From Verrucomicrobiota bacterium (GTDB lineage Bacteria; Verrucomicrobiota; Verrucomicrobiia; Limisphaerales; UBA11358), in NCBI GenBank assembly GCA_049521735.1, contig JBEKON010000001.1:98604-162603 (forward strand): a stretch of 64,000 nt of DNA, read 5' to 3'. The translations under genes were made by a program, and so were the position numbers. Below are positions 671 to 63,890 of this stretch, in pieces (positions within the stretch are counted from its first letter, which is position 1; each line of letters begins with the position of its first letter). The notes under the pieces were generated by a model, which was given only the letters and a program-made list of their open reading frames with translations, ran no database searches and was not told the DNA's origin.

Positions 671-3600
671 TTGCGCGAAAAATGCGGTGTGCAGGTGCGA
701 TTTCTCCTCGGCCCCGCCGGCAGCGGCAAGACGTTCCTTTGCCTGAAGGAAATCCGTGATGCACTGCGCGAAAATCCTGAAGGACCGCCGCTGATTTTGC
801 TGGCGCCCAAACAGACCACGTTTCAACTCGAACGCCAGTTGCTCACCGGCCATTCGCTTGACGGTTACACGCGACTCCACATTTTTTCATTCGAGCGGCT
901 GGCACGATTTGTTTTTGAAAAATCAAACATCGTGCCGCCTGAACCATTGAGTGACGAAGGCCGTGTGATGGTGTTGCGCGCGCTGTTGATGCGGCACGAA
1001 CATAAACTGAAACTTTTTCGCGGGAGCGCGCGCCGCCCCGGCTTCGCGCAGGAACTCGGCGGATTGTTCAATGAATTCCGGCAGCATCAATTGACGCCGC
1101 TCAAACTCCGCGCCCTTGCCCAACGCCCGGGCTTGCGTCCCGAACTTGGGGACAAGCTGCAAGACCTCGCGCTGCTGGACGACGCTTACGCGAAATGGCT
1201 CTCCGAACACGAATTGCAGGACGCGGATTGTTTGCTGGATACGGCGACCGAAGCGCTGCGCTCCGAACTTAAAACTCAAAACTCAAAACTTAAAATTCAA
1301 GGTTTGTGGTTGGACGGTTTTGCCGAAATGACGCCGCAGGAACTCGGTTTGCTCGCCACCATTCTGCCGTTTTGTGAACGCGCAACGCTCGCGTTCTGCC
1401 TCGACGAATCCCGCGCGCGGAAAGCCGAAAGTTCATGGCTCTCACTTTGGTCAGCCGTTGGCAAAACCTATCAACAATGCCGGTCGCGAATTGAAAATCT
1501 GCCCGATTGCACAATCAGCGTTGAAACACTTAAGCGTGTCCCGGACCAAAACCGCTTTACGGGCAGTCCCGCTTTGCAATTTTTGGAGGCAAACTGGTCG
1601 CAACCAACTCAAAACTTAAAACTTAAAATTCAAAACTCAATCCGGCTCGTTGCCTGTCCAAATCCCGAAGTCGAGGCCGTTCTGGCCGCGCGCGAAATTT
1701 TGGAATTCGTCCGCCGCGGCAATCGCTTTCGCGACTGCGCCGTGCTTGTTCGCAGTCTTGACGCCTATCACAAGCCGCTGGAGCGCGCATTTTGCCGTTA
1801 CGGCATCCCGTTTTTCCTGGACCAGCGCAAATCCGTTTCACATCACCCCCTCGGCGAACTGACCCGCAGTGTGGTCCGCACCGTTGCATTTGACTGGCGG
1901 CAGGAGGATTGGTTCGCCGCGCTGAAAGCCGGGTTTTCGCCGGTGGATGAGGCGGAGATTGACCGGTTGGAAAACGAGGCGCTGGCGCGCGGCTGGCGTG
2001 GCGCGAAATGGCGCGAACCCATTCAAATCGCCGACGATCCACAATTGGAAAAATCACTCGAACGGTTGCGCAAAAAAATCCTGCCACCGTTTGAAAATTT
2101 CGCCAAACAGCTTGTGCGGTTGAAAAATGAACCCACCGGCGGGCAATTGGCCGATGCGTTGCGCGAACTTTGGGGCGAACTCGATGTGGAGAAAACCTTG
2201 GAGCGTTGGAGCCTTGTCGAAACGGAACAATCCGCAATCCATTCGACCGTTTGGGATCAAATGAACTTGTGGCTGGAAAATCTGGCGCTTGCATTTCCAC
2301 GCGAGCCATTGCCGCTGCGCGACTGGCTGCCAATTTTGGAGGCGGGACTTTCGAACCTGACCGTTGGGGTGATTCCGCCCGTGCTCGACGAAGTGCTCGT
2401 CGGCGCGATTGACCGCGCGCGCAACCCCGATTTGAAACTGGCGCTCGTGCTCGGCGTGAATGAATCCGTTTTTCCCGCCGCGCCCGCCGCCCCGACGATT
2501 TTGACCGACGCCGACCGCGATGAATTGAATCCTGCGGTTGCGCTTGGCCCGGATTTGCGCGAGCGGCTGGCGCGCGAGCGTTATTATGGCTACATCACCT
2601 GCACCCGCGCGCGGGAAAAACTCGTTGTGACCTTTGCCCGCCTCGACGCCGATGGCAAAACACTGAACCCGTCGTCGCTCGTCGCACATCTGCGACAGAT
2701 GTTCCCTGAACTTGAAATTGAGGAATTCCACACGGACACCGATTTGGGCGAGGTGGAACATGTGAGTGAAATCGCGCCGATGCTGATGGGAGTTCAGGTA
2801 GGGCGGGCTGTCCCCAGCCCGCCGGAGCGGCGCGATGAGGACATCGCGCCCTACCAACAAAATTGGGCGAGGTTGCTGAAAATTCCAGTGCTCGCAACGC
2901 TGCTCGAAAATTTGCGCCAGTTGCGCGAACCGGATTCGGCGGAATGTTTGTCTCCCGCGCTCGCGGAAAAAATTTACGGCGAGACACTGCAAACGTCGGT
3001 CAGCCGGCTCGAGGAATTTGCCCAGTGCCCGTTTCGATTTTTCGTTCATTCCGGCTTGCGCGCCGAGGAGCGAAAAGTTTTCGAGCTGGATGCGCGCGAA
3101 CGCGGCAGTTTTCAGCACGAAGTTTTGAAAAAATTCCACGACGATTTGACGAAAGAGGGCAAACACTGGCGCGACATTGCGCCGTCGGAAGCGCGCGAAC
3201 GCGTTGGTAAAATTGCCGCCGGACTTGCGCAAGATTATCGCGACGGTTTGTTGCGCGCGGATGACCAAAGCCGGTTTGCCGCGCGCATGCTGACGGAGTC
3301 GCTGCAGGATTTTGTCGAGGTGCTCGTCGCGTGGATGCGCGGGCAGTACCAGTTTGATCCGGCGGTGGCTGAACTCGAATTTGGTTTCAACGTCGGCGGT
3401 GCGCCCGCGTGGGAAATCAATCTCGACGACCGGCACAAGCTCGCGTTGCGCGGACGGATTGACCGGGTTGATTTGTGCCGCGAAACCGGCGACAGCGCGT
3501 TATGCGTGGTGATGGATTACAAGTCCGGCGGCAAGAAGCTCGACGCGATTTTGGTCGAGCACGGCGTGCAATTGCAATTGCTCGCGTATTTGAACGCGCT

Positions 3601-4102
3601 GCGGCATTGGCCAAATCCTCAAACGCTGTTGGAAGCGGCCCGGTTGATTCCAGCGGGTGTTTTCCACGTGAATCTGCGCGGCCAATACGAAAGCGGCAGC
3701 ACGCGCGCCGAGGCGCTGGCCGACGCGGATGAATCACGGCGCGTGGCGTATCGTCATACGGGACGTTTTGATGCGAGTTTTCTGGACAAGTTTGACAACC
3801 GTCCGAATGTGCGGTGCGGCGACCAGTTTAATTATAACCGCAACAACGACGGCTCAATGCGCAAAGGCTCGACTGAAGCGCTGTCGCGCCCGGAATTTGG
3901 AGCGTTGCTTGACCGCGTCGAAATGCAATTGCGCAAGATGGGCCGCGCGATTTTTTCCGGCGCGGCGTCCGTTGACCCGTATCGCAAAGGCAGCGAGACG
4001 CCGTGCGGATTTTGCGATTACCGCGCCGTGTGCCGGATTGATCCGTGGACGCACCGTTATCGCGTGCTGCGCGCGGCGAAAGAAAATTCTCCGTCAACAT
4101 GA
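671..4102 (+). CDS. addB: AddB/RexB-type helicase-nuclease subunit (PD-(D/E)XK nuclease with Fe-S cysteines)
   Basis: 1143-aa ORF; N-terminal Walker A GPAGSGKT; C-terminal CPFRF ... CGFCDYRAVC four-Cys pattern typical of AddB. Start uncertain (TTG 671 or GTG 689/695). No addA-like gene adjacent. Confidence 0.75.
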   Translation: MREKCGVQVRFLLGPAGSGKTFLCLKEIRDALRENPEGPPLILLAPKQTTFQLERQLLTGHSLDGYTRLHIFSFERLARFVFEKSNIVPPEPLSDEGRVMVLRALLMRHEHKLKLFRGSARRPGFAQELGGLFNEFRQHQLTPLKLRALAQRPGLRPELGDKLQDLALLDDAYAKWLSEHELQDADCLLDTATEALRSELKTQNSKLKIQGLWLDGFAEMTPQELGLLATILPFCERATLAFCLDESRARKAESSWLSLWSAVGKTYQQCRSRIENLPDCTISVETLKRVPDQNRFTGSPALQFLEANWSQPTQNLKLKIQNSIRLVACPNPEVEAVLAAREILEFVRRGNRFRDCAVLVRSLDAYHKPLERAFCRYGIPFFLDQRKSVSHHPLGELTRSVVRTVAFDWRQEDWFAALKAGFSPVDEAEIDRLENEALARGWRGAKWREPIQIADDPQLEKSLERLRKKILPPFENFAKQLVRLKNEPTGGQLADALRELWGELDVEKTLERWSLVETEQSAIHSTVWDQMNLWLENLALAFPREPLPLRDWLPILEAGLSNLTVGVIPPVLDEVLVGAIDRARNPDLKLALVLGVNESVFPAAPAAPTILTDADRDELNPAVALGPDLRERLARERYYGYITCTRAREKLVVTFARLDADGKTLNPSSLVAHLRQMFPELEIEEFHTDTDLGEVEHVSEIAPMLMGVQVGRAVPSPPERRDEDIAPYQQNWARLLKIPVLATLLENLRQLREPDSAECLSPALAEKIYGETLQTSVSRLEEFAQCPFRFFVHSGLRAEERKVFELDARERGSFQHEVLKKFHDDLTKEGKHWRDIAPSEARERVGKIAAGLAQDYRDGLLRADDQSRFAARMLTESLQDFVEVLVAWMRGQYQFDPAVAELEFGFNVGGAPAWEINLDDRHKLALRGRIDRVDLCRETGDSALCVVMDYKSGGKKLDAILVEHGVQLQLLAYLNALRHWPNPQTLLEAARLIPAGVFHVNLRGQYESGSTRAEALADADESRRVAYRHTGRFDASFLDKFDNRPNVRCGDQFNYNRNNDGSMRKGSTEALSRPEFGALLDRVEMQLRKMGRAIFSGAASVDPYRKGSETPCGFCDYRAVCRIDPWTHRYRVLRAAKENSPST
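1268..1300 (+). repeat. Heptamer tandem array (AAAACTC/AAAACTT/AAAATTC x4-5), in frame inside addB
   Basis: cttaaaactcaaaactcaaaacttaaaattcaa read directly; encodes ...LKTQNSKLKIQ... Confidence 0.9.
1606..1640 (+). repeat. Second AAAACTY heptamer array, same orientation, in frame inside addB
   Basis: caactcaaaacttaaaacttaaaattcaaaactcaa; encodes ...TQNLKLKIQNS... Confidence 0.9.
2797..2855 (+). repeat. GTAGG...CCTAC double-hairpin palindromic element (type 1), in frame inside addB
   Basis: ggtagg-gcgggctg tcccc agcccgcc-ggagc-ggcgcgatg aggac atcgcgcc-ctacc; translated as VGRAVPSPPERRDEDIAPYQ. Confidence 0.9.
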
Positions 4103-8426: not shown

Positions 8427-8511
8427 GCGCATATGGTGGAATTGGCAGACACGCTACTTTGAGGTGGTAGTGGGGCAACCCGTGCAGGTTCAAGTCCTGC
8501 TATGCGCACCA
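8427..8511 (+). tRNA. tRNA-Leu (anticodon GAG), CCA encoded
   Basis: Hand fold: acceptor GCGCATA/TATGCGC, anticodon stem CTACT/GGTAG with loop TTGAGGT, long variable arm, T-arm GCAGG-TTCAAGT-CCTGC. Layout parallels E. coli tRNA-Leu. Confidence 0.9.
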
Positions 8512-8997: not shown

Positions 8998-9618
8998 TTA
9001 CCGTCGCGCCTGCAGACTACGCACCGCGAAAAACTTCTCGGCGTATTTGCCGAGCAAATCGGCCTCCAAATTCACCGCATCGCCAACTTTGCGTTCGCGC
9101 AATGCCGTGACTTCGTAGGTGTGCGGGATAATCCAGACGCGGAAACTTTTTTTCTGCACGCTGGCTACGGTGAGGCTGATGCCATCCACGGCGACCGAAC
9201 CTTTGAAGACGATATAACGCATCACTTCTGCCGGCGCGGCTATGTCCAAAACAAAATCCGCACCGGATTGTTCCCAGCGGATGATTTTGCCGACGCCGTC
9301 AATGTGCCCGGTCACGAAATGGCCGCCAAACTCGCCGCTCGCGCGCAGCGGACGTTCCAAATTCACCAGCGAACCGGGCTCTGCGAATTGCAAATTCGTC
9401 CGCTTCCACGTCTCCCGCAGCAAATCAAACTGAACCAGTTTGTTTTTTCCACGCGGAGAAACTTTCACGGCTGTCAGACAACAGCCGTTGACAGCCAGGC
9501 TGCCTCCGGATTTCAAGCCGCGTCCAGTGACGCCGGCGCGCACGGTCAATTCGATGGATTTCGCCGTCGGTTTGATCCGCTCGACGATTCCTGTTTCTTC
9601 AACGATACCGGTGAACAT
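8998..9618 (-). CDS. ribE: Riboflavin synthase alpha chain
   Basis: Starts MFTGIVEETG; two lumazine-binding repeats (GSLAVNGCCLT / GSVAVDGISLT). Confidence 0.9.
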   Translation of the reverse strand: MFTGIVEETGIVERIKPTAKSIELTVRAGVTGRGLKSGGSLAVNGCCLTAVKVSPRGKNKLVQFDLLRETWKRTNLQFAEPGSLVNLERPLRASGEFGGHFVTGHIDGVGKIIRWEQSGADFVLDIAAPAEVMRYIVFKGSVAVDGISLTVASVQKKSFRVWIIPHTYEVTALRERKVGDAVNLEADLLGKYAEKFFAVRSLQARR

Positions 9619-9626
9619 CAGGTGTA

Positions 9627-9655
9627 GTTTCAAGTTTCAGGTTTCAAGTTTCAAG
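9627..9655. repeat. Intergenic heptamer array (GTTTCAA/GTTTCAG x4)
   Basis: gtttcaagtttcaggtttcaagtttcaag between the ribE start and the ribD stop. Confidence 0.9.
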
Positions 9656-9693: not shown

Positions 9694-10896
9694 TTAATCA
9701 ACACGTGCCGTCAGCAACAAATCCGGTCCGAGCCGCCTCCACTCGACGTTGCGAAGCCGGAGCGCCTCCGCCAGACTTTTCGCGCCGCCACCCGCGACCG
9801 CTTTGCGTGAGTCGCGTCCGCCCAGAATTTTTGGCGCGTAAAAAAACGCGATGCGATGTGCAAAACCGCCGAGCAGAAACGATGCGTTCACTTCGCCGCC
9901 GCCTTCGACCAGCAGGCTGGTAATATTTTGTGAGCCGAGTTTTTGCAACAGCCAACGCAGGTCAATTTGTTGGTAGGGCACGGTCTCCGCACCGTGCCGC
10001 GGCGCGCTGGGGACAGCGCGCCCTACCTTGATTATGGGCGCGACAAGAACATTCACGCGCCCGGCCAAAGCCGCGACGCGACTTTTCGGCGCGGATTTGC
10101 TCACGACAATCGTCGTCAGCGCCGCAAATTTGTCAGTTACAACTTTTGCCTTCAACGGTGTTCGTGCCATCGAATCCAAAATAATCCGGCGGAGCCGCAA
10201 ATTTTTGTTCTGACTTCTGACTCCTGACTTCTGCCTTCTGAATGTCAGGCTTGGGTTGTCCGCTAGAATCGTGTTGATGCCGACGAGAATCGCGTCGTTG
10301 CCTTGACGCAATTTCATGCCGTGCGCCCGAGCCTGCTTGCCGGTAATCCATTTCGACTCGCCACTCGCCGTGGCGATTTTCCCATCGAGCGTCATTGCCG
10401 CCTTCACGGTCACGAACGGCGTGCGGTGAACAATCCAATGGTTGAATGGTTCATTAAGCCGCTCACATTCATCGGCGAGTCTGGTAGGGACGGCTCGCCG
10501 AGCCGTCCGGTCATCACGGCGCAATAACCCTACCTCTGTTACTGCAATCCCGGCACGTTTCAAAATCCTGAAAGCACGACCGGCATGTTTCGGATTTGGA
10601 TCCGTCGCGCCGACAACCACGCGTTTGATTCCCGCCGCGATGATGGCGTCCGTGCAAGGTGGCGTGCGGCTGTGTGAGCTGCACGGTTCGAGCGTCACGT
10701 AAAGCGTTGCGCCGCGCGGCGAGTGCCCGCGTTTCTGCGCATCGCGGAGCGCTTCGATTTCCGCGTGCGGCAGACCCGCACGCCGGTGCCAGCCGCGCCC
10801 GATGATTTTTCCGCCTTTCGCCAATACCGCGCCGACCATCGGATTGGGCGAAGTCATGCCGTAGCCGCGTTGCGCCAAACTCAAAGCCAGGCGCAT
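9694..10896 (-). CDS. ribD: Bifunctional riboflavin biosynthesis deaminase/reductase RibD, carrying three in-frame repeat insertions
   Basis: MRLALSLAQRGYGMTSPNPMVGAVL, HAEIEAL, LEPC..H..TPPC deaminase motifs plus reductase domain. Start moved to ATG 10896 to clear the ftsY stop. Confidence 0.9.
   Translation of the reverse strand: MRLALSLAQRGYGMTSPNPMVGAVLAKGGKIIGRGWHRRAGLPHAEIEALRDAQKRGHSPRGATLYVTLEPCSSHSRTPPCTDAIIAAGIKRVVVGATDPNPKHAGRAFRILKRAGIAVTEVGLLRRDDRTARRAVPTRLADECERLNEPFNHWIVHRTPFVTVKAAMTLDGKIATASGESKWITGKQARAHGMKLRQGNDAILVGINTILADNPSLTFRRQKSGVRSQNKNLRLRRIILDSMARTPLKAKVVTDKFAALTTIVVSKSAPKSRVAALAGRVNVLVAPIIKVGRAVPSAPRHGAETVPYQQIDLRWLLQKLGSQNITSLLVEGGGEVNASFLLGGFAHRIAFFYAPKILGGRDSRKAVAGGGAKSLAEALRLRNVEWRRLGPDLLLTARVD
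9972..10027 (-). repeat. Type-1 GTAGG...CCTAC double-hairpin element, in frame inside ribD
   Basis: Gene-strand reading ggtagg-gcgcgctg tcccc agcgcgc-...-ggcacggtg cggag accgtgcc-ctacc = VGRAVPSAPRHGAETVPYQ. Confidence 0.9.
10210..10249 (-). repeat. Heptamer array (CTGACTT/CTGACTC/CTGCCTT x5) in frame inside ribD
   Basis: ctgacttctgactcctgacttctgccttctgaatgtcagg; encodes RRQKSGVRSQNKN on the gene strand. Confidence 0.9.
10483..10534 (-). repeat. GTAGG...CCTAC palindromic element (variant) in frame inside ribD
   Basis: ggtagggacggctcgccgagccgtccggtcatcacggcgcaataaccctacc; gene strand reads VGLLRRDDRTARRAVPT. Confidence 0.85.
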
Positions 10897-10906
10897 AAAT
10901 TTCAAA

Positions 10907-11851
10907 TCATTCTTCAAACAACGCCTCCGCAAATTGTTTTGCATCGAACGGCTGCAAATCGTCCGCCTGCTCGCCGAGGCCGACGAATTTAATCGGCAGG
11001 CCGAGTTCCTTCTGAATCGCCACGACCATGCCGCCTTTGCTCGTGCCGTCGAGCTTGGTCACCACCAGCCCGGTGAGCGGCACGGCCTTGTTGAACTCGC
11101 GCGCCTGATTCAGCGCGTTCATGCCGGTCGTCGCATCGAGCACCAGCAACACTTCGTGCGGCGCGCCGGGCAGTTGCCTGCCGATGACGCGATGTAGCTT
11201 CTGCAATTCCTGCATCAGATTGTGCTTGGTGTGCAAGCGTCCGGCGGTGTCTATGAACAGGTAATCCGTCTTGCGCGCCTGCGCAGCAGCAACGGCATCG
11301 TGCGCCACAGCCGCCGCATCCGCGCCATAAGCGTCGGCAATCACTTCAACTTTCAACCGCTGACCCCAAAGCTTGATTTGCTCTATGGCTGCGGCGCGAA
11401 ACGTGTCACACGCGGCGAGCAAGGCGGTTTGCCCGCGCGATTGAACGGCGTGCGCAAGCTTGGCCGCCGTGGTGGTTTTGCCCGTGCCATTGACACCAAC
11501 AATGGAAACGACGGTCGTGCCATGCGGCGCTTTGATTAAATCGGTTTTATTCGATGCCCCCGTCTCCGCCGAAGGCTTCGACGCGGCAAGAAAACTCTTC
11601 TCCACTTCGGCACGAGCGATGGCAAAGACATCCAAGCTGGCGCCGCCCTGCGTTTCATAGTTTTTTTTCACCGCAGCGATAATTTGCGAAGTCATCGCCA
11701 TTCCCAAATCGGCGGCGATGAGCGCGGTTTCGAGTTCTTCGAGCGCGGCGGCGTCGAGCTTCGGCGAGCGCGTGATGACGCGCTTGATTTCGTGCGCCAG
11801 CCTGCCGTGGGTTTTTTGCAGACCGGCTTTGAACTTCTGAAATAGTCCCAT
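10907..11851 (-). CDS. ftsY: Signal recognition particle receptor FtsY
   Basis: [35 protein letters not shown]-GTPase motifs. Confidence 0.9.
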
Positions 11852-16124: not shown

Positions 16125-16209
16125 GTAGGAGCCGAGGTGACGAGGCTCTGACAGGTTTTCAATTTCTGATTTCCACTTTAGAAGTGAGCCTCCTTACGTC
16201 GGCTCCTAC
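16125..16209. repeat. GTAGGAGCC...GGCTCCTAC palindromic element (type 3)
   Basis: gtaggagccgaggtgacgaggctc...gagcctccttacgtcggctcctac followed by a T-run; likely also acts as the rpoZ terminator. Confidence 0.85.
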
Positions 16210-18854: not shown

Positions 18855-20072
18855 ATGGCCACGATCAAACCATTTGCCGCGTTGCGACCCAAACCGGAAC
18901 TGGCTTCGCAAATTTGCGAACTGCCTTACGACGTCATGTCGTCGGACGAAGCGCGTGAACTGGCGGCCAACAATCCGTTGAGCTTTCTGCATGTCAGCAA
19001 ACCGGAGATTGATTTGCCGCCGGGCACGGACATTTACGCGCCGGAAGTTTATGCGAAGGGCAAAGAAAATTTTCAGAAACTCATCCGTGACGGCGCGCTC
19101 CAGCAGGATTCACAGCCGCACTTTTACCTTTACCGGCAAATCATGGGCGGTCATTCGCAAACCGGCCTTGTCGCGGCCGCGAGCTGCGAGGAGTATCTCA
19201 ATGGCGTCATCAAGAAGCATGAATTGACCCAGCCCGACAAGGAAGACGACCGGTTGCGCCACATTGAAACGCTCAATTCCCAAACCGGTCCGGCGTTTCT
19301 GACTTATCGCGCCAGTTCAGCGCTTGACGAATTGGTTGCGATGAAAATTGCGGGGAAACCCGACGTGGATTTCACGGCCAAAGATGATGTGCGGCACACT
19401 TCATGGACGATCAATGACGCGGCGGAAATTCGGCTTATCGGAGCGCAATTCGCAAAAATTTCACGCCTTTACATCGGGGATGGGCATCATCGCAGCGCTG
19501 CGGCGGCGCGTATTTTTCAAAAGCGCCATGGCGCGGGCCGCAGCGGGCAATTTCTGGCCGTGATTTTTCCGCATAACCAGCTGCAGATTCTGCCCTACAA
19601 CCGCGTGTTGAAGGATTTGAACGGCCACACGCCGGAACAATTGCTGGAAGAACTGCAAATCCATTCGGATTTTTTGATTTCAAAAGACGGAAGCGCGATG
19701 CCAAAACGGAAAAACGAACTCGGGTTTTATTTTCAAGGCAAATGGCGGACGCTTTCGGTGCAGCCGATAAAATTGCGGAAAGACGCGATTGAGAATCTGG
19801 ACGTGACGCTGTTGCAAAAAAGAATTCTTGCGCCGGTGTTTGGCATTGACGACCCGCGCACGAGCGAGCGTATTGATTTCATCGGCGGCATCCGTGGCAC
19901 GGCGGAACTGGAAAAATTGGTGGATAGCGGTGAATACGCCTGCGCGTTTTCGATGTTCCCGACGGGCATCGAGGATTTAATGACGGTCGCGAACGCCGGC
20001 GGCATGATGCCGCCCAAAAGCACGTGGTTCGAACCGAAGCTCCGCGACGGGATGTTTTGCCATATGATTTAA
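18855..20072 (+). CDS. DUF1015 family protein
   Basis: MATIKPFAALRPKPELASQICELPYDVMSSDEARE and YIGDGHHRSAAA are as I remember for DUF1015. Confidence 0.75.
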   Translation: MATIKPFAALRPKPELASQICELPYDVMSSDEARELAANNPLSFLHVSKPEIDLPPGTDIYAPEVYAKGKENFQKLIRDGALQQDSQPHFYLYRQIMGGHSQTGLVAAASCEEYLNGVIKKHELTQPDKEDDRLRHIETLNSQTGPAFLTYRASSALDELVAMKIAGKPDVDFTAKDDVRHTSWTINDAAEIRLIGAQFAKISRLYIGDGHHRSAAAARIFQKRHGAGRSGQFLAVIFPHNQLQILPYNRVLKDLNGHTPEQLLEELQIHSDFLISKDGSAMPKRKNELGFYFQGKWRTLSVQPIKLRKDAIENLDVTLLQKRILAPVFGIDDPRTSERIDFIGGIRGTAELEKLVDSGEYACAFSMFPTGIEDLMTVANAGGMMPPKSTWFEPKLRDGMFCHMI

Positions 20073-20164
20073 AGTGTCACGTATCACGTATCATGTGTCA
20101 CGCAGCCGAATGCCAAATACCCGACGGACGACACTTGGCACATGACACACGACACCTGACACTT
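20073..20164. repeat. 'Empty' heptamer-arm hairpin of the same family as 6562/6978
   Basis: agtgtcacgtatcacgtatcatgtgtcacg - 27-nt loop - gacacttggcacatgacacacgacacctgacact. Arms share gtgtcacgtatca and tggcacatgacac strings with the carB-adjacent cassette. Confidence 0.85.
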
Positions 20165-20176
20165 TAGCTTTTCCCC

Positions 20177-37827: not shown

Positions 37828-37887
37828 GGTAGGGCGGGCTGTCCCCAGCCCGCCGCCAACGGCGCGATGAGGACATCGCGCCCTACC
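37828..37887 (+). repeat. Type-1 GTAGG...CCTAC double-hairpin element immediately upstream of the recG ATG
   Basis: ggtagggcgggctgtccccagcccgccgccaacggcgcgatgaggacatcgcgccctacc. Near-identical to 2797-2855 but 1 nt longer, which gives TGA in the recG frame. Confidence 0.9.
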
Positions 37888-37891
37888 TTCC

Positions 37892-39949
37892 ATGCGTCCA
37901 CAAATCCAAGACAATCCGCTGGCTGCACCCGTAACGACATTGTGGGGTGTCGGCGCGGAACGCGCGGCGCAACTCGCACGCCTCGACATTCACACCATCG
38001 AGGATTTGTTGCTGCACCGGCCGCGGCGTTATGAAGATCGCCGTCATTTTCGCAGTATTGCCGGGTTGACCCGTGACGAAGCGGCGACCACGCGCGGCAC
38101 GATTGTCACGCTCGGCCTCAGACGTTTTCGCGGCGGCAACAAATCCGTTTTTGAAATCATTCTCGATGATGGCAGCGCCCGGTTGCATTGCCGCTGGTGG
38201 AATCTGCCGTTCATGCAAAATTATTTTGCGGTTGGCGACGAGATTTTCGTTTACGGCAAGCTCAATGAAACCAAGCCGCGCATCATTGACCATCCTGAAA
38301 CCGAAGTCATCGAGGGCGGCGAGGAGAGCTTCATCCACATCAACCGCATCGCGCCGGTGTATCCGCTCACCGAAGGCCTGCCGCAACGCTGGTTGCGCGG
38401 GCTGATCTGGCGGACGTTGGAAAAATTCGAGCGGCACATCGCCGAACCGTGGCCGGGAAATGTAGGACAGGTGTCCCGCCTGTCTCCATCTTCAAGTTCT
38501 AAAAATCAGGGACAGGCTGGAAGCCTGTCCTACCCGACGCGCGCCAACGCCATTCACATGACGCATTTCCCCGAAGAGCTGGCCGATGTGGAAATCGCAC
38601 GGCGACGGCTGGCGTTGGATGAATTCATTGCGTTGCAGCGTGACATGCAGCTTCGCCGGAAAAATTTCGAGGCCAAATCGCGCGCATTACCGTGCGGTGG
38701 TGACAATCGTTTGATGAAGCCGTTTCTGGCACGGCTCGGCTTCAAGCTCACCGACGCCCAGACGAAAGTCCTCCGCGAAATCCGGGCGGACATGAGCGGG
38801 GCGCATCCGATGCGGCGGCTGCTGCAAGGCGACGTCGGTTCAGGCAAGACGGTGGTTGCCGCCTGCGCGGCGCTCATGGCTTTGGAAAGCGGGTTCAATG
38901 TTGCGCTCATGGCGCCGACGGAAATCCTTGCGGAACAACATTTCAACAATTTTTCGCGCTGGTTTGGACCGCTCGGCGTGAAGGTGAAATTGCAAACAGG
39001 TTCACACAGGAGTAAGGAACAAGAAGTAAGGCGCAAGACCCTCGCAGCAAAACCCTTACTCCTTACTCCTTGCTCCTTGACCATCGGCACTCACGCCCTC
39101 ATCGAGTCGGGATTTGTATTGGAGAAATTGGGTTTGGTCATTATTGACGAGCAGCACAAGTTTGGCGTGGCACAGCGCGAACAGATCGTGCGTAAAGGCC
39201 GCTATCCGCATTTGCTCGTGATGACGGCTACCCCGATTCCGCGCACGCTCGGCCTTACGCTTTACGGCGACCTTGATATTTCGGTAATTGACCAGATGCC
39301 CGGTGGACGCGGCAGGATAAAAACTTTTCTACGCACGACCGAAAAATTGCCTGAAGTTTGGAAATTCATCCGCGAAAAACTGGCTGCCGGACGGCAGGCA
39401 TACGTCGTTTATCCGCGCGTGGAGGATTCAGGACCAAATGGGTTGAAAGCGGTGAAAAAGGAATTTGAAAATTTGAAGAAGCTGCTCGCGCCATTCCATG
39501 TCGGGTTGATGCACGGCCGGTTGAAAGGGCGGGAGAAGGACGAAGTAATGACAGCGTTTCGCGCGAACCAAATTCAGGCGCTCGTCGCGACGACGCTGGT
39601 TGAAGTGGGTTTGGATGTGCCGAACGCAACGATCATGCTGGTTGAAAATGCGGAGCGGTTCGGTCTGGCGCAATTGCATCAATTACGCGGGCGCATCGGG
39701 CGCGGCGCGCATGAGTCGCACTGCATTTTGATTTCCGACGCGAAGAATGAGGATGCAGGGCGGCGCTTGAAAGTTTTGGAAGAGACGACGGACGGGTTTC
39801 GCATTGCCGAGGTGGATTTGAAATTGCGCGGGCCGGGCGAATTGCTCGGCCAGCGGCAAAGCGGCCTGCCGAAATTCCGCTTCGGCAATCTGGCCGGGGA
39901 TTTGGATTTGATCCGGTTTGCGCGCGAGTTGGCGGCGCAAATAATTTAG
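37892..39949 (+). CDS. recG: ATP-dependent DNA helicase RecG, carrying two in-frame repeat segments
   Basis: LLLHRPRRYEDR wedge-domain start, GDVGSGKTVVA, DEQHKFGV, MTATPIPRTL, HGRLK..EK, QLHQLRGRIGRG. Confidence 0.9.
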   Translation: MRPQIQDNPLAAPVTTLWGVGAERAAQLARLDIHTIEDLLLHRPRRYEDRRHFRSIAGLTRDEAATTRGTIVTLGLRRFRGGNKSVFEIILDDGSARLHCRWWNLPFMQNYFAVGDEIFVYGKLNETKPRIIDHPETEVIEGGEESFIHINRIAPVYPLTEGLPQRWLRGLIWRTLEKFERHIAEPWPGNVGQVSRLSPSSSSKNQGQAGSLSYPTRANAIHMTHFPEELADVEIARRRLALDEFIALQRDMQLRRKNFEAKSRALPCGGDNRLMKPFLARLGFKLTDAQTKVLREIRADMSGAHPMRRLLQGDVGSGKTVVAACAALMALESGFNVALMAPTEILAEQHFNNFSRWFGPLGVKVKLQTGSHRSKEQEVRRKTLAAKPLLLTPCSLTIGTHALIESGFVLEKLGLVIIDEQHKFGVAQREQIVRKGRYPHLLVMTATPIPRTLGLTLYGDLDISVIDQMPGGRGRIKTFLRTTEKLPEVWKFIREKLAAGRQAYVVYPRVEDSGPNGLKAVKKEFENLKKLLAPFHVGLMHGRLKGREKDEVMTAFRANQIQALVATTLVEVGLDVPNATIMLVENAERFGLAQLHQLRGRIGRGAHESHCILISDAKNEDAGRRLKVLEETTDGFRIAEVDLKLRGPGELLGQRQSGLPKFRFGNLAGDLDLIRFARELAAQII
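38462..38533 (+). repeat. Type-2 GTAGGACAGG...CCTGTCCTAC element (72 nt) in frame inside recG
   Basis: gtaggacaggtgtcccgcctgtctccatct...cagggacaggctggaagcctgtcctac = VGQVSRLSPSSSSKNQGQAGSLSY. Confidence 0.9.
39009..39076 (+). repeat. Heptamer-arm hairpin (GTAAGGA/ACAAGAA vs CCTTACT x2) in frame inside recG
   Basis: ggagtaaggaacaagaagtaaggcgcaag - loop - cccttactccttactccttgctcc; encodes RSKEQEVRRKTLAAKPLLLTPCS. Confidence 0.85.
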
Positions 39950-49433: not shown

Positions 49434-50360
49434 ATGAGCAAAACCGCATTGCTGTTTGCCGGACAAGGCACGCAGGCCGTCGGCATGGGCAAAGACCTCG
49501 CCGAAAAATTTCCGTCGGCCAAAGCCTGGTTCGACCGCGCCAACGGCGCGCTCGGCTGCGATCTGGCTTCGATCTGTTTCACCGGCCCGGAAGCCGAACT
49601 CACCAAAACCGAAAATGCACAGCCGGGAATTTTTCTCGTGAGCTGGGTCGCGTTTCTATTGCTCAAGGAACAGGCGCCGTTGCTTAAATTCGACGCCACA
49701 GCTGGTTTGTCGCTCGGCGAATTCACAGCGCTGACGGCGGCGGGCGCAATGAATTTCGAGGACGGTCTGCGGGTCGTGCGCCAGCGCGGACGATTCATGC
49801 AGGAAGCCTGCGATGCCACGCGCGGCGGCATGGCGGCGGTCATCGGCTTGGACGAAACGCTCACACGCGAGGTTTGTGCCGAAGCCGGCGTGGTGCTGGC
49901 AAACCTGAATTGTCCCGGCCAGCTCGTGATTTCCGGCGAGATGGACAAGATCGCCAAAGCCGTCGAACTCGCCAAAGCCAGGGGCGCAAAACGCGCGATT
50001 CCACTACCGGTCGCCGGCGCCTATCACTCGCCGCTCATGGCCAGTGCACAGCCAAAACTTCAAGCTGAATTGGCCAAAATGAAATTATCATCACTGGTTG
50101 TGCCGGTGATTTCGAACGTGACGGGACAACCGCATGGCGGCACAACGGAAATTTCCGCCCGGCTTGTCGAGCAGATCACGTCATCGGTGTTCTGGGAAAA
50201 ATCCATGCGATATCTGTTGGCACAAGGATTCACGCGGTTTATAGAACTCGGGCCCGGCACGGCATTGAGCGGTTTCATGAAACGAATTGATAAAAATGCG
50301 CAGATGCTCAACGTGGCGGACGTGGCAAGCCTGGAAGCGACGGCGAAAGTGCTGGTGTAG
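49434..50360 (+). CDS. fabD: Malonyl-CoA:ACP transacylase
   Basis: FAGQGTQ, GLSLGEF, full length 308 aa; the stop TAG lies in the GTAG terminus of the next element. Confidence 0.95.
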   Translation: MSKTALLFAGQGTQAVGMGKDLAEKFPSAKAWFDRANGALGCDLASICFTGPEAELTKTENAQPGIFLVSWVAFLLLKEQAPLLKFDATAGLSLGEFTALTAAGAMNFEDGLRVVRQRGRFMQEACDATRGGMAAVIGLDETLTREVCAEAGVVLANLNCPGQLVISGEMDKIAKAVELAKARGAKRAIPLPVAGAYHSPLMASAQPKLQAELAKMKLSSLVVPVISNVTGQPHGGTTEISARLVEQITSSVFWEKSMRYLLAQGFTRFIELGPGTALSGFMKRIDKNAQMLNVADVASLEATAKVLV

Positions 50361-50461
50361 CACCCGCGTCTCGCGGGTGACGTTGGGCGTCCCGCCCGGC
50401 GCAAGTTTCCGCAAAGGTTCAGGCGGGACGCCTGAACCGACCCGCCGGAGGCGGGTGCTAC
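50357..50461 (+). repeat. 105-nt GTAGCACCCGC...GCGGGTGCTAC multi-hairpin palindromic element
   Basis: gtagcacccgcgtctcgcgggtg ... ggcgtcccgcc ... ggcgggacgcc ... cccgccggaggcgggtgctac. Confidence 0.85.
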
Positions 50462-52915: not shown

Positions 52916-52927
52916 AGCATCTTCAAA

Positions 52928-53000
52928 ATAGGACAGGCTTCCAGCTTGTCTCCATCTCAAAGCGGGAAAAAGTCATGGACGGGCAAGATGCCTGTCCTAC
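52928..53000 (+). repeat. Type-2 (A/G)TAGGACAGG...CCTGTCCTAC element between convergent fabF and pyrF
   Basis: ataggacaggcttccagcttgtctccatct...ggacgggcaagatgcctgtcctac; its right terminus supplies the pyrF stop codon. Confidence 0.9.
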
Positions 53001-53701
53001 TTTAAAGACTCCAAAATCTTCTCCGCTGCTTCCCGCGGATTTTCCGCCGCATAAATCGGCCGGCCAATCACCAGCCAGTTTGCCCCGGCGGCAATGGCTT
53101 CCCGCGGCGTCAGCGTGCGCTTTTGGTCGTCGGCTTTTTCTGTGCCAGTGCGAACACCGGGTGTGATGAGTTGAATGCCGGCAGTCAACATTTGACGCAG
53201 CTCGGCCACTTCCAACGGCGAGCAAATAAGACCGCGCAGGCCGGCTTTGGTGGCCATGTTCGCGAGCCGGCGCACCTGGCTGGCGACATTCGGGTCAAGG
53301 CCGATTTCGCTTAACGACTGGCTGGTGAGGCTTGTGAGCACGGTCACGCCCAGCACCAACGGCGCATTGTGACCGGTTTGTTTCGCGGTTTTTTGCGCCG
53401 ATTCCTCCGCCGCGCGCATCATGTCCACTCCGCCGCTGACATGCACGGTGAGCATTTGCACGTCCAATCGCACGGCCGAGGCAACGGCTCTGGCGACGGT
53501 GTTCGGGATGTCGTGGAATTTTAAATCAAGAAAAACCGCGGCCCCCGTCGCGCGAATCCGCCGGACAATATCCGGCCCGGCGCTGGTGAACAATTCGCTG
53601 CCAATCTTGAACGCGCCGACCACCGGCGCGATTTTCTTGGCCAACTCCAGCGCGGCTTCGGCGGTTGGCACATCGAGCGCGGCGATGATGGGATTACGCA
53701 T
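52997..53701 (-). CDS. pyrF: Orotidine 5'-phosphate decarboxylase
   Basis: IIAALDV, FLDLKFHDIPNTV, PGVR. Confidence 0.9.
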   Translation of the reverse strand: MRNPIIAALDVPTAEAALELAKKIAPVVGAFKIGSELFTSAGPDIVRRIRATGAAVFLDLKFHDIPNTVARAVASAVRLDVQMLTVHVSGGVDMMRAAEESAQKTAKQTGHNAPLVLGVTVLTSLTSQSLSEIGLDPNVASQVRRLANMATKAGLRGLICSPLEVAELRQMLTAGIQLITPGVRTGTEKADDQKRTLTPREAIAAGANWLVIGRPIYAAENPREAAEKILESLK

Positions 53702-53717
53702 GGTTCGAATTATTTAA

Positions 53718-53848
53718 CCACAGATGAACACAGATAAACACGGATGGAAATAAAAGAATTGAACGGTCATAAGACAAGACCAGACAACAAAATTTTTCCT
53801 GTGCAGCACTCCGCTTTTTTATCCGTGTTAATCCGTGTCCATCCGTGG
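53718..53848. repeat. Hairpin with period-10 arms (CCACAGATGA/ACACAGATAA vs ATCCGTGTTA/ATCCGTGTCC) and a 75-nt loop
   Basis: Hand pairing of 53718-53745 with 53821-53848 gives 24/28 Watson-Crick. Three of the four mismatches are A-C on the + strand, which are G-U on the - strand. Confidence 0.85.
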
Positions 53849-53908
53849 TTCGATTTGTATTTCCCCAGCTATTTTGACTTTACTCCCGGAATTGCCTAGC
53901 CTGCCCGC

Positions 53909-55204
53909 ATGAAAGTCATCCGCCACACCGACGCGAATTTTTCCCAGAAACTTCGCGAACTGACTGCGCCGTCGAGCCTGTTCGATCCTGTCATCGAACA
54001 GCGCGTCCGCGCCATCCTTGATGCGGTGCAAATTCGCGGCGACGATGCGGTATTGGAATTCACGGAAAAATTCGATGGCGCAAAACTCACCGCCGACCAG
54101 ATCGCCGTGACACAGGCTGAACTAATGGCCGCGTCACTCAAAGCCGACGAGTCGCTGCGCACCGCCGTCGCCGGGGCGGGAAAAAACATCACGAACTTCG
54201 CCAGGAAATCGCTGCGCAAAAACTGGCAGACGAAAAATTCGCACGGCGCGAAAGTCGGCGAGAAATTCGATCCGTTCCAGCGCGTCGGCGTTTACATTCC
54301 CGGCGGCAAGGCGCCGCTCGTTTCGACTGCGCTGATGACCATTACGCTGGCGAAGGTTGCGGGCTGTCCGGAAATTGTTGTTTGCACGCCGTGCGGCAGG
54401 GATGGCTCCATCAATTCCGTGTTGTTGTTCGCCGCTCGTGCGGCAGGCGCGACGGAGATTTACCGCGTAGGCGGGGCACAGGCGATTGCGGCGATGGCTT
54501 ACGGCACAAACACGATTCGCCGTGTGCAGAAAATTTTCGGCCCCGGCAATGCCTATGTCGTCACTGCCAAGCGCCTGCTCGTCGGGTATGTCGCGATTGA
54601 TTTGCTGCCCGGCCCAAGCGAACTGCTCGTGCTGGCGGACGAAACGGCGAATCCGAAATTCATCGCTGCCGACTTGTTGCCGCAGGCCGAGCACGGCTCC
54701 GGACACGAGCGCGTCTGGCTCATAACGACTTCGGATAAAATTTTGAAAGCCGTTGAAAAGGAGATTGCCAGACAATTACCGAAGCTGGAGCGGCGGGAAT
54801 TCATCCAGCGCGTGCTCGACGCCAACGGCTGGCTGATTCAGGTGAAAACGCTCGATGATGGCGTGGCGCTGGCGAACCGGCTCGCGCCGGAGCATTGCGA
54901 AGTGATGACGCGCAATCCGCGCAAGGTTTCCAGGGGTATTTTGACCGCCGGCGCGATTTTCCTTGGGCCATGGTCGCCGACGGTGCTGGGCGATTACGTG
55001 GCCGGGCCGAGCCACACGCTGCCGACCGGCGGCGCTGGCGCGTCGTTTGCCGGCCTGACGGTGGATCAGTTCCAGCGCCGCACCAGCGTGGTGGAATACA
55101 CCCGCGCCTCGCTCAAGAAAGCCCTGCCCACCGTGAAGAAATTCGCGGAACTGGAAGGTCTGGACGCGCATGGACGTTCTGCCGAAATTCGTTCCTCAAA
55201 ATGA
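53909..55204 (+). CDS. hisD: Histidinol dehydrogenase
   Basis: YIPGGKAPLVST, GPGNAYV, AEHGSG..., HTLPTGG. Confidence 0.95.
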   Translation: MKVIRHTDANFSQKLRELTAPSSLFDPVIEQRVRAILDAVQIRGDDAVLEFTEKFDGAKLTADQIAVTQAELMAASLKADESLRTAVAGAGKNITNFARKSLRKNWQTKNSHGAKVGEKFDPFQRVGVYIPGGKAPLVSTALMTITLAKVAGCPEIVVCTPCGRDGSINSVLLFAARAAGATEIYRVGGAQAIAAMAYGTNTIRRVQKIFGPGNAYVVTAKRLLVGYVAIDLLPGPSELLVLADETANPKFIAADLLPQAEHGSGHERVWLITTSDKILKAVEKEIARQLPKLERREFIQRVLDANGWLIQVKTLDDGVALANRLAPEHCEVMTRNPRKVSRGILTAGAIFLGPWSPTVLGDYVAGPSHTLPTGGAGASFAGLTVDQFQRRTSVVEYTRASLKKALPTVKKFAELEGLDAHGRSAEIRSSK

Positions 55205-56352
55205 AAAGTCCTAAACTTTTGGTTCGTCCGCTCGTGCGCGAGTTGTACCCCTACGTTTATGGCGAGCAGCCAAAGATCAAAGGGTTGATCAAGCTCAACA
55301 CGAACGAAAATCCGTATCCGCCGTCGCCGAAGGTGCTGGCGGCGGTCAGAGCGGCGGTGGACGGGCGGTTACGGAAGTATCCAAACCCGACGGCACAGAC
55401 GCTGCGCGAAAAGCTGGCGAAGTTGCACGGTTGTCACGCGGACAACATCATCGTGGGCAACGGCTCGGACGAATTGCTGGCATTGGCCACGCGGTGCTTT
55501 GTGGAGCCAAGCGTAGGACAGGCTTCCAGCCTGTCTCCATCTGCAAAGAAAAAGTCAGAGACAGGCAAGATGCCTGTCCTACGTTGCAACATCATCCAAT
55601 ACTTCACACCAAGTTATTCGCTCTACCCAGTGCTCGCGGATATTCACGGTGCGGCGAAGAATCCCGTGTCACTCAAGCCTGATTTTAGCCTGCCGAGTGT
55701 GGCGGAATTGAAGCATGGAAGGGTGTGGAGATTTAACGCCGCACTGACTTATGTGACGACACCGAACGCACCCAGCGGTCGCGGTTATTCGATAAAGGAA
55801 TTGGAATCGCTTTGCCGGGCGCAACGCGGTGTGGTGGTGCTGGATGAGGCTTATGTGGATTTCGCGGAGGAAAACGCGATGAAACTGGCGTTGAAATATC
55901 CGCATGTGCTCGTCGCGCGGACATTCTCGAAGGCGTATTCGCTCTGCTTCCAGCGTGTCGGTTATTTTGTCGGGCATCGCGACCTCATCGCGGCGCTGCA
56001 CAAAATTCGCGACAGTTACAATGTCAACGGCCTCGGCCAGATCGCCGCAGTGGCAACGCTGGGTGATTTGCCGTATTACCGCGCGAATTTCCGGAGAATT
56101 ATCGCCACGCGTGAGTGGTTGAGCCGCGAATTGACGAAGCTCGGTTTCCGTGTTTTTCCGAGTCAGGCGAATTTTATTCTCGTCCAGCCGTCATTGTTTT
56201 CCGCGAAAGACTGGCTGGAAAAACTTCGAGACCGGAAAATTCTGGTCCGCTGGTTTAATTTCCACGAGGTAAAAAAATATCTGCGCATCACAATTGGCAA
56301 TCCCTCGGAAGTGGAAGCATTGGTGCAAGCGGCGCGGAAGATTTTGTTGTAG
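55201..56352 (+). CDS. hisC: Histidinol-phosphate aminotransferase, carrying an in-frame repeat insertion
   Basis: LNTNENPYPPSP, GNGSDELL, FSKAYSL; ATGA overlap with hisD. Confidence 0.9.
   Translation: MKSPKLLVRPLVRELYPYVYGEQPKIKGLIKLNTNENPYPPSPKVLAAVRAAVDGRLRKYPNPTAQTLREKLAKLHGCHADNIIVGNGSDELLALATRCFVEPSVGQASSLSPSAKKKSETGKMPVLRCNIIQYFTPSYSLYPVLADIHGAAKNPVSLKPDFSLPSVAELKHGRVWRFNAALTYVTTPNAPSGRGYSIKELESLCRAQRGVVVLDEAYVDFAEENAMKLALKYPHVLVARTFSKAYSLCFQRVGYFVGHRDLIAALHKIRDSYNVNGLGQIAAVATLGDLPYYRANFRRIIATREWLSRELTKLGFRVFPSQANFILVQPSLFSAKDWLEKLRDRKILVRWFNFHEVKKYLRITIGNPSEVEALVQAARKILL
55513..55582 (+). repeat. Type-2 GTAGGACAGG...CCTGTCCTAC element in frame inside hisC
   Basis: gtaggacaggcttccagcctgtctccatctgcaaagaaaaagtcagagacaggcaagatgcctgtcctac = VGQASSLSPSAKKKSETGKMPVL. 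Confidence 0.9.
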
Positions 56353-63706: not shown

Positions 63707-63890
63707 GGGATTCTTTTGTATGCGATTTTTTCGCGCAGCCAGAATGGAGACAACCATTTATTTTTCCAATAAAAAGTCGTTGCATTTTTCCCGGCAATGG
63801 ATAGAAATTCACCATCAGGCAGGAGAAATTGCTCGACCTCTTGTCATTTGGCCGCTACATCGGTTCCTCACGACGGGGTGAATTATCGGT

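Follow-up and report, generated by a model that had tools for sequence, protein, structure and literature searches.

In-frame GTAG REP dimers and a heptanucleotide array in the ribD gene of a Verrucomicrobiota bacterium

Introduction

The inserts of Rickettsia palindromic elements (RPE) are thought to lie in surface loops, and RPE are confined to this obligate intracellular genus. As Ogata and colleagues reportedly described in 2000, they occur in frame in housekeeping genes that stay functional. Another class of small repeats, the heptanucleotide STRR of cyanobacteria, has the canonical units CCCCAGT, TTGGTCA, and CAACAGT. They are reported to be tolerated inside a functional RNase P RNA gene (Mazel 1990; Vioque 1997, PMC146911). 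G-rich heptamers of the GGGNATC type occur in Xanthomonas and Nostoc, and their preference for four units was ascribed to quadruplex formation (Rehm 2015, PMC4692102).

Intragenic GTAG REPs were described by Di Nocera, De Gregorio, and Rocco (2013, PMC3733652). In that study, the highest count is given for the verrucomicrobium Opitutus terrae (e.g. VGPALAAGREQRARLPAAGERPPY), the intragenic GTAG dimers encode 20–30 residues, some ORFs were struck twice, and repair genes are often decorated. The same study describes the short RPEs (RPE-4 and RPE-6) as CGTC-tagged and RPE-1 as longer. In-frame REPs are already known, Verrucomicrobia included, and the case of ribD itself falls within that phenomenon. 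For Verrucomicrobia subdivision 3, our literature search yielded no report of heptamer arrays or of repeats read in frame.

The host of the gene studied here is a Verrucomicrobiota bacterium of subdivision 3 (Limisphaerales-like) from peat soil, and its genome is rich in two kinds of small repeats. We analyzed a 64-kb stretch of this genome, hereafter called the window. According to the original prediction, made from the sequence of the window, ribD carries three independent in-frame elements of two classes between its conserved blocks, which was attributed to frequent insertion followed by filtering for the reading frame.

Results

The ribD coding sequence is located on the minus strand at positions 9694–10896 and comprises 400 codons and a stop codon. 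It encodes a bifunctional pyrimidine deaminase/reductase. The minus-strand frame is open across 9694–10944, with the ATG at 10896 as the likely start, and the gene calls on an identical JGI contig agree with this coding sequence. The gene is flanked by ftsY (10907–11851) on one side and ribE (about 8998–9618) on the other. The protein contains the Pfam domains dCMP_cyt_deam_1, a zinc domain of the cytidine deaminase type, and RibD_C, the reductase domain, together with the zinc deaminase motifs (H-A-E and PC...C), and it is similar over its full length to RibD proteins of solved structure. The best match is RibD of B. subtilis (2b3z, E = 1.7e-72), which aligns with query residues 1–398, i.e., from end to end. 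In the orthologue comparison, the zinc ligands and the catalytic glutamate (H44-A45-E46, C72, and C81) are invariant. The dN/dS ratio against eight orthologues is 0.07–0.14 with the three loops excluded.

A pseudogene accompanied by a second intact ribD, the case that the original prediction set against itself, was not found in the window. A tblastn search with RibD detected no second copy in the 64-kb window, and its sole other match there is a REP peptide inside addB. Judged from these features, ribD is an intact, functional-looking gene under purifying selection and not a pseudogene. At least 11 contigs from JGI, ENA, and NCBI encode this RibD protein, either in identical form or differing by single substitutions; therefore, the three elements are not an assembly artefact. 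Presence/absence polymorphism in sister strains, which the prediction proposed to look for, was not observed: all five near-identical full-length variants in the 90% cluster carry all three elements.

Two of the three elements, all of which preserve the reading frame, are palindromic. The element at site 1 (10483–10534) consists of an intact plus-strand unit (10484–10508) and a degenerate minus-strand unit (10509–10533), and it is translated as VGLLRRDDRTARRAVPT (residues 122–138). Its ends read GGTAGGG...CCCTACC; the left hairpin is a perfect 10 bp stem (10488–10497/10499–10508), and the right hairpin is degenerate. In relatives, the second hairpin is perfect (GGTCATCGCGCCGCGATGACC). The element at site 3 (9972–10027) is translated as VGRAVPSAPRHGAETVPYQ (residues 291–309). 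Its two 28-nt arms, which have no spacer and are 79% complementary, hold a plus-strand unit (9973–9998) and a minus-strand unit (10001–10026) with their GTAGGG heads facing outward. In the three units at 9973–9998, 10001–10026, and 10484–10508, the GTAGGG head is followed by a GC-rich stem of 8–9 bp and a loop of 3–6 nt.

The GTAG dimers consist of two inverted units joined tail to tail, with arms that are 79–82% complementary. As a single strand, they are predicted to adopt a Y shape, in which a GGUAGGG/CCCUACC closing stem bears two hairpins. The z-scores of these Y-folds range from −4 to −7, and those of the two ribD dimers are −4 to −5. The sense-strand fold of the site 1 dimer has a predicted energy of −31 kcal/mol, and the fold of the site 3 dimer is Y-shaped with −41 kcal/mol (z = −5). 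Hallmarks of REPs are a short stem-loop that bears the tetranucleotide GTAG at one of its ends (a unit of 20–40 bp with a stem of 6–9 bp) and, for dimers, the combination of two inverted units into a larger structure. The elements at 9972–10027 and 10483–10534 both belong to one class, the GTAG REP dimers. The "variant" and the "type-1 double hairpin" that the original prediction distinguished are the same class.

For the four GGTAGGG dimers, the two flanks have no more than 1–3 bases in common (AA/AA, TT/TT, and TCT/TCT), and neither a convincing target-site duplication nor any other transposition footprint could be defined. Selection on the mRNA structure was considered and rejected, as 32 of the 71 orthologous inserts favor the sense strand and 39 favor the antisense strand. 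G-U pairs are commoner on the antisense strand of these inserts. The site 1 element of the window forms its complete fold only on the mRNA strand, via G-U pairs. No Rfam family matches the ribD region, and the sole match obtained was a tRNA at 8427–8508.

The GTAG motif is not restricted to ribD. The window contains 4–5 GTAGG(G)...CC(C)TAC pairs, whereas 0.02 are expected by chance, and the repeats form dispersed families, with four GTAGGGCG-type and four GTAGGACAGGC-type dimers in the 64 kb of the genome seen. A member of the family of the ribD dimers is located in frame in addB (2797–2855, GGTAGGGCGGGCTG...) and is translated as VGRAVPSPPERRDEDIAPYQ. A near-identical copy, longer by one base, lies outside genes at 37828–37887, in the spacer just upstream of recG. 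Copies of the second family (GTAGGACAGGC...) lie within recG and a hisC-like aminotransferase gene as well as in spacers. The extragenic location of REPs does not apply to the two copies in ribD or to those in addB, recG, and the hisC-like gene, which are intragenic; such exceptions have been documented before (PMC3733652). Among 21 GTAG units counted with one fixed geometry, the stems vary in a compensatory manner (CGCGCTG/CAGCGCG, CGGGCTG/CAGCCCG, and CGCGATG/CATCGCG); this count serves as a list of stem variants, being too small for statistics.

The enzyme expected to mobilize REPs is the REP-associated tyrosine transposase (RAYT). No RAYT was detected among the 37 ORFs scanned in the window. 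A motif scan of 852 kb gave one candidate, in the related genome L042, which matches the NCBIfam model NF047646 (E = 1e-19) with 70.9 bits, below the curated cut-off of 80. This RAYT-like ORF is flanked on both sides by GGTAGGGCAAAGC hairpins, which indicates that this class of enzyme and the GTAGGG hairpins coexist in the clade. The system differs from REPIN/RAYT in that a possible cognate RAYT was seen only in this related genome and with a score below the cut-off.

The dimers of the window resemble the GTAG REPs (PMC3733652) and the REPIN-RAYT system in the GTAG head beside a short GC-rich hairpin, the inverted units 0–5 nt apart, the in-frame dimers of about 20 residues, and the decorated repair genes, which are addB and recG here. 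They differ from the REPs described there in their host, since the ribD case comes from metagenome-assembled genomes of subdivision 3, in their stem sequences, and in that roughly half of the window's dimers lie within genes. Like RPE, they are palindromic repeats in frame in an ORF, and the ribD frame appears to have been kept functional (dN/dS about 0.1). Unlike RPE-4 and RPE-6, for which a CGTC tag is described (PMC3733652), they are GTAG-tagged.

The third element is a tandem array at site 2 (10208–10241, minus strand) with about five copies of the sense unit CAGAAGT. Tandem Repeats Finder reported a period of 7, 4.9 copies, and 85% matches; the array had been predicted at 10210–10249, and its end was drawn slightly too generously. 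It is translated as RQKSGVRSQNKN (residues 221–232), directly after the nearly invariant R220 (SLTxR). In our reading, R220, immediately before site 2, is the arginine that binds phosphate in the reductase site; therefore, the neutrality of an insert at this place is not guaranteed. Another array, AGTTTCA with 4.3 copies, occupies 9626–9655 in the ribD-ribE spacer and stops approximately 8 nt short of the start codon of ribE. The corresponding spacer of orthologues is pieced together from GTAGG hairpins and heptamer arrays.

At least 13 period-7 arrays, each composed of head-to-tail 7-nt copies and with different units among them, were found in the window. In approximately 750 kb of related DNA outside ribD, 111 period-7 arrays were counted, two to three and a half times the number of period-6 (31) or period-8 arrays (49). 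Both in ORFs and in spacers, period-7 arrays most often have four copies and seldom more than five. Within ribD, a short allele lacks exactly three units (21 nt) relative to an array allele, and the repeated unit is the sequence found once in the short allele. For example, ATCCGCA has a single copy in L024 and four copies in L019, AAGATGG has one in L029 and four in L022, and CAGAAGT has two in L019 and five in both L018 and the window. The units of different species are connected by single steps (CAGAAGT, CAGAAGG, CAGATGG, and AAGATGG), and the copies within one array are nearly identical. Because of the 21-nt steps, the single-step links, and the near identity within arrays, the ribD array seems better explained by local expansion with homogenization than by insertion of a mobile element. 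Slippage by one unit cannot take a single heptamer to four copies with the frame kept.

The arrays share with STRR and the heptamers of Rehm the period of 7 and the occurrence of many dispersed arrays, mostly in spacers near genes, and their preference for four units is also that of the Rehm heptamers. Their units (CAGAAGT, AACTCAA, AGTTTCA, and others) are different from the canonical STRR units. They are diverse and not G-rich, in contrast to the heptamers reported by Rehm (PMC4692102); therefore, the explanation of the four units by G-quadruplexes does not carry over to them. Further differences from both systems are the in-frame arrays in protein-coding genes, the 21-nt quanta, and the host phylum.

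The alignment with 2b3z has three stretches present only in the query, and they coincide with the three elements. Approximately 15 residues are added after AGIAVTEVG at site 1, approximately 7 within RRQKSGVRSQNKN at site 2, and 20 at site 3 (KVGRAVPSAPRHGAETVPYQ), where the alignment with the E. coli protein also breaks. By alignment, site 1 separates the last strand of the deaminase domain from its last helix, site 2 falls within the long alpha8-beta8 loop, and site 3 precedes the helix IDLRWLL. The alpha8-beta8 loop of AbRibD was described as very long (PMC3668577). An AlphaFold2 model has low-confidence coil at residues 123–137, 214–234, and 292–307, between predicted strands and helices. 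However, the model, built on a 55-sequence alignment, is poor (mean pLDDT of 51) because the homologues are too similar to one another, and we used it as weak support for loops; the loop assignment therefore rests mainly on the alignment gaps. With the open frame and the query-only gaps at all three named places, the predicted in-frame elements and their position between conserved RibD blocks were borne out. They appear to sit at indel-prone positions of solved RibD proteins, where length variation is tolerated.

A scan of species-representative genomes provided 80 ribD loci from peat, soil, and freshwater, almost all of which carry the label Verrucomicrobiota or Limisphaerales; 81 genes were compared. 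The matched ribD stretch varies from 1050 to 1290 nt. In these genes and the 120 closest database proteins, the length variation is concentrated at the three loops, and every insert is free of stop codons and has a length divisible by three. The alignment with orthologues, which had been proposed as a check, displays presence, absence, and replacement at exactly these loops and always in frame. Site 1 is empty (VHGI, 12 nt) in 38 of the 81 genes. Filled alleles contain at least seven unrelated palindromic families, sometimes with two elements in tandem: the short GTAGGG family, the long GGTAGGGCGCG family, TTTGGACTGCG, TTTGGAGTTCC, TGGGGCGAG, GGGAGCGCCGGC, and CCCTCTCCCC. These alleles do not have the native loop codons (GTTCACGGAATT); the elements replace them rather than being added, with boundaries that are fixed for each family. 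That several families fill the same loops in different species is not described in the part of the GTAG REP survey consulted (PMC3733652).

At site 2, most alleles have a heptamer array, the units of which vary, or else a longer palindrome. Site 3 is empty in 15 genes and carries a four-unit heptamer array in 35 and a REP-type element in 16. A small palindrome is present inside the site 3 array in five genes, and palindromes with array units on both sides were found in L011, L022, L035, L049, L002, and L015. Some REP dimers at site 3 are shortened by an in-frame internal deletion, as in L004, which has the dimer of the window minus 27 nt. As a control, the neighboring gene of the operon, ribE, was examined in 72 of these genomes and is free of internal insertions in all of them.

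The identity of the elements between orthologues is 0.70–0.90, compared with 0.48–0.69 at the four-fold degenerate sites of the flanking gene. The alignment of the window with its closest relative, L001, alternates between long identical stretches and diverged ones; the two agree fully over the site 3 element and its flanks, and sites 1 and 2 differ. On a neighbor-joining tree, the site 1 loop states require 36 changes, compared with 41 for shuffled labels, which is near random. This parsimony count of insertions cannot be relied on, given the recombination mosaic seen in the closest relative, and the mosaic identity between relatives means that recombination may inflate the apparent number of events. 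The near-random distribution may reflect shuffling of alleles rather than dozens of insertions.

Discussion

It is probable that a working ribD gene has taken up two GTAG REP dimers in surface loops, that a third loop consists of an expanded heptamer array, and that all three are translated. Two REP dimers would have landed in two surface loops, mobilized in trans presumably by a RAYT, and in the third loop a local heptamer would have expanded by misalignment to a tandem array of approximately five units. All of them would be transcribed and translated as extra loop residues: 17 at site 1, about 7 at site 2, and 19–20 at site 3. Their persistence would depend on a net length that is a multiple of three, on a frame that avoids the TAG within GTAG and any stop in the heptamers, and on a location where RibD tolerates length variation. 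Selection would remove all but the in-frame events in tolerant loops. We infer that a RAYT moved these particular copies. The insert peptides are probably surface loops with no function of their own, and selection, not targeting, would account for the recurrence at the loops.

The in-frame presence, absence, and replacement in orthologues is what frequent gain followed by a frame-and-loop filter predicts. In this respect, the original prediction of frequent insertion and frame filtering appears largely right for the REP dimers, but the heptamer array is better read as a local expansion. The replaced native codons and the fixed boundaries leave targeting or a few recombination-spread events as live alternatives to frequent insertion. 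We counted the lack of a RAYT in the window, the L042 match below the cut-off, and the lack of a footprint against the preferred explanation, and likewise the loss of the native loop codons in filled alleles, which simple insertion does not predict. The position of site 2 directly behind R220, the poor structure model, and the limits of one-unit slippage also weigh against it.

A plausible alternative, though somewhat less likely than not, is that each family entered in a few ancient insertions, once per family, and that the loop alleles then spread by homologous recombination between lineages. The mosaic of L001 and the window, the almost random loop states on the tree, and the constant boundaries within families are consistent with such a history. 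However, about 8–10 independent entries into site 1 would still be required, along with several into site 3. The similarity of the elements beyond that of four-fold sites was also counted against this history; it fits constraint, recent independent gain, or recombination.

It is also conceivable, though we think it rather unlikely, that integration is targeted and the loops are landing pads at the DNA level, for example heptamer tracts or resident elements that draw in new ones, so that the recurrence would also reflect target preference. In favor of this, at least seven unrelated palindromic families share one 4-codon loop at site 1 with constant boundaries and replaced native codons, small palindromes are nested within heptamer arrays, REPs and arrays alternate at site 3, and ribE is free of internal insertions. 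However, no common target motif or duplication was found at the three sites, and a single origin per family explains the constant boundaries equally well. Distant RibD proteins vary in length at the same loops, so that tolerance alone predicts recurrence.

The extra segments might instead serve RibD as lineage-specific functional loops whose likeness to repeats is coincidental, or be repeats later recruited for a protein function. The better conservation of the elements than of synonymous sites and their fixation at the strain level agree with this possibility. We consider it improbable, because the same DNA is found in addB, beside recG, and in spacers, the insert is absent from site 1 in 38 and from site 3 in 15 of the 81 orthologues, unrelated peptides occupy one position, and the conservation is palindromic, i.e., at the DNA level, with no sense-strand bias. 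Finally, structures of −31 to −41 kcal/mol in a coding region could hinder ribosomes, but it is very improbable that the elements are untranslated, either in a decaying pseudogene or through removal or bypass at the RNA or ribosome level, given a dN/dS of about 0.1, the invariably stop-free inserts in multiples of three in 81 genes and 120 proteins, which would be needless if the inserts were removed, the lack of an Rfam match to the region, and the single ribD in the window.

Beyond the cases that we found described, there are the reuse of three loops by multiple families, arrays quantized in 21-nt steps, and palindromes nested in arrays. As a speculation that we regard as doubtful, the three RibD loops may be long-lived landing pads, where a length-measuring mechanism makes four- to five-unit heptamer arrays out of the local sequence, within genes in 21-nt steps, and the arrays attract several families of small palindromes. 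If so, the loop content would turn over much faster than the gene diverges. Heterocystous cyanobacteria and Xanthomonas show this combination of heptamer arrays, four-unit preference, and nested palindromes as well, which would point to a common undescribed mechanism.

The repeats also present a hazard for annotation. Repeat peptides such as VGRAVPSAP...APYQ and SQKSEVRSQNKN give spurious similarity between unrelated proteins, as in the match of RibD to addB. The orthologue series, with empty loops, different families, arrays of one or four units, and internally deleted elements, is a ready comparison that can be used to study the turnover rate of the elements, their choice of target, and the tolerance of the protein. 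Under the preferred explanation, that of REP dimers and an expanded array filtered for frame and loop, ribD would be a clear natural example of small repeats that lengthen the coding sequence of a core metabolic enzyme and still leave the enzyme intact.

In-frame elements in other genes

Three elements lie in frame within addB, as they do in ribD. The addB gene (positions 671–4102 of the window, plus strand) encodes a protein with ADDB_N and PD-(D/E)XK nuclease domains. Two of its elements are arrays of an AACTCAA heptamer (1266–1300, ELKTQNSKLKIQ; 1606–1640, PTQNLKLKIQNSI), and the remaining one, a GTAGGG REP dimer, comprises two inverted GTAG-tagged hairpin units (2797–2855, VGRAVPSPPERRDEDIAPYQ). 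The recG gene (37892–39949, plus strand) carries elements at 38462–38533 and 39008–39078. One is a GTAGGACAGG REP dimer (VGQVSRLSPSSSSKNQGQAGSLSY), and the other consists of CCTTACT-type heptamer tracts arranged as an inverted pair, in frame. A GTAGGACAGGC dimer lies in frame at 55512–55583 in a hisC-like class I/II aminotransferase gene (54895–56352, plus strand), and a gene for a TPR/PMT_2 membrane protein (61685–63757, minus strand) contains two in-frame heptamer arrays (63016–63046 and 63080–63110).

Inverted elements in spacers

Two long inverted repeats consist of short units in tandem. The units are GTATCAC/ATGACAC heptamers at 20070–20166, in the spacer between the DUF1015 and cation-efflux genes, and CACAGATGAA-type decamers at 53716–53850, in a spacer adjoining pyrF. 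Three spacers contain further GTAG-headed inverted elements: upstream of smpB (16125–16209), between the fabD-like and fabG-like genes (50357–50461), and adjoining pyrF (52920–53008); the stems of all three are unlike those of the ribD copies. The sole Rfam match at the gathering threshold in the whole 64 kb window is a tRNA gene (8427–8508, plus strand).

The ribD-ribE spacer

The spacer between ribD and the neighboring ribE gene (with a heptamer array at 9626–9655 in the window, and located 3′ of ribD in L001–L080, the ribD-bearing loci of related genomes) is a patchwork that differs species by species and ranges from 9 to 217 nt in length. It combines heptamer arrays (CTTGAAA, CTTGCAA/CCTGCAA) with GTAGG-type hairpins, and these elements often end 3–8 nt 5′ of the ribE ATG. 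The motif ACRCGGCTCGACGG(A/G)GTC is conserved approximately 40 nt upstream of this ATG in approximately 20 related genomes (L019, L024, L032, L036, L048, L002, L006, L022, L064, L072, and others), and possibly represents a regulatory element or an RNA element. The window lacks this motif.

In locus L042, a RAYT-like ORF (1948–2463, minus strand), which matches NF047646 with a score below the curated cut-off, is located approximately 2.3 kb from ribD. On either side of this ORF lie GGTAGGGCAAAGC..GCTTTGCC hairpins, and hairpins of this family are also present in the ribD-ribE spacers of L016, L018, L038, and L052.

Mosaic identity of ribD

The two closest ribD genes are those of the window (9694–10896) and L001 (5001–6248). 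Their nucleotide identity is a mosaic, in which identical runs of more than 100 bases alternate with clearly diverged blocks. This sequence pattern suggests recent homologous recombination between lineages.
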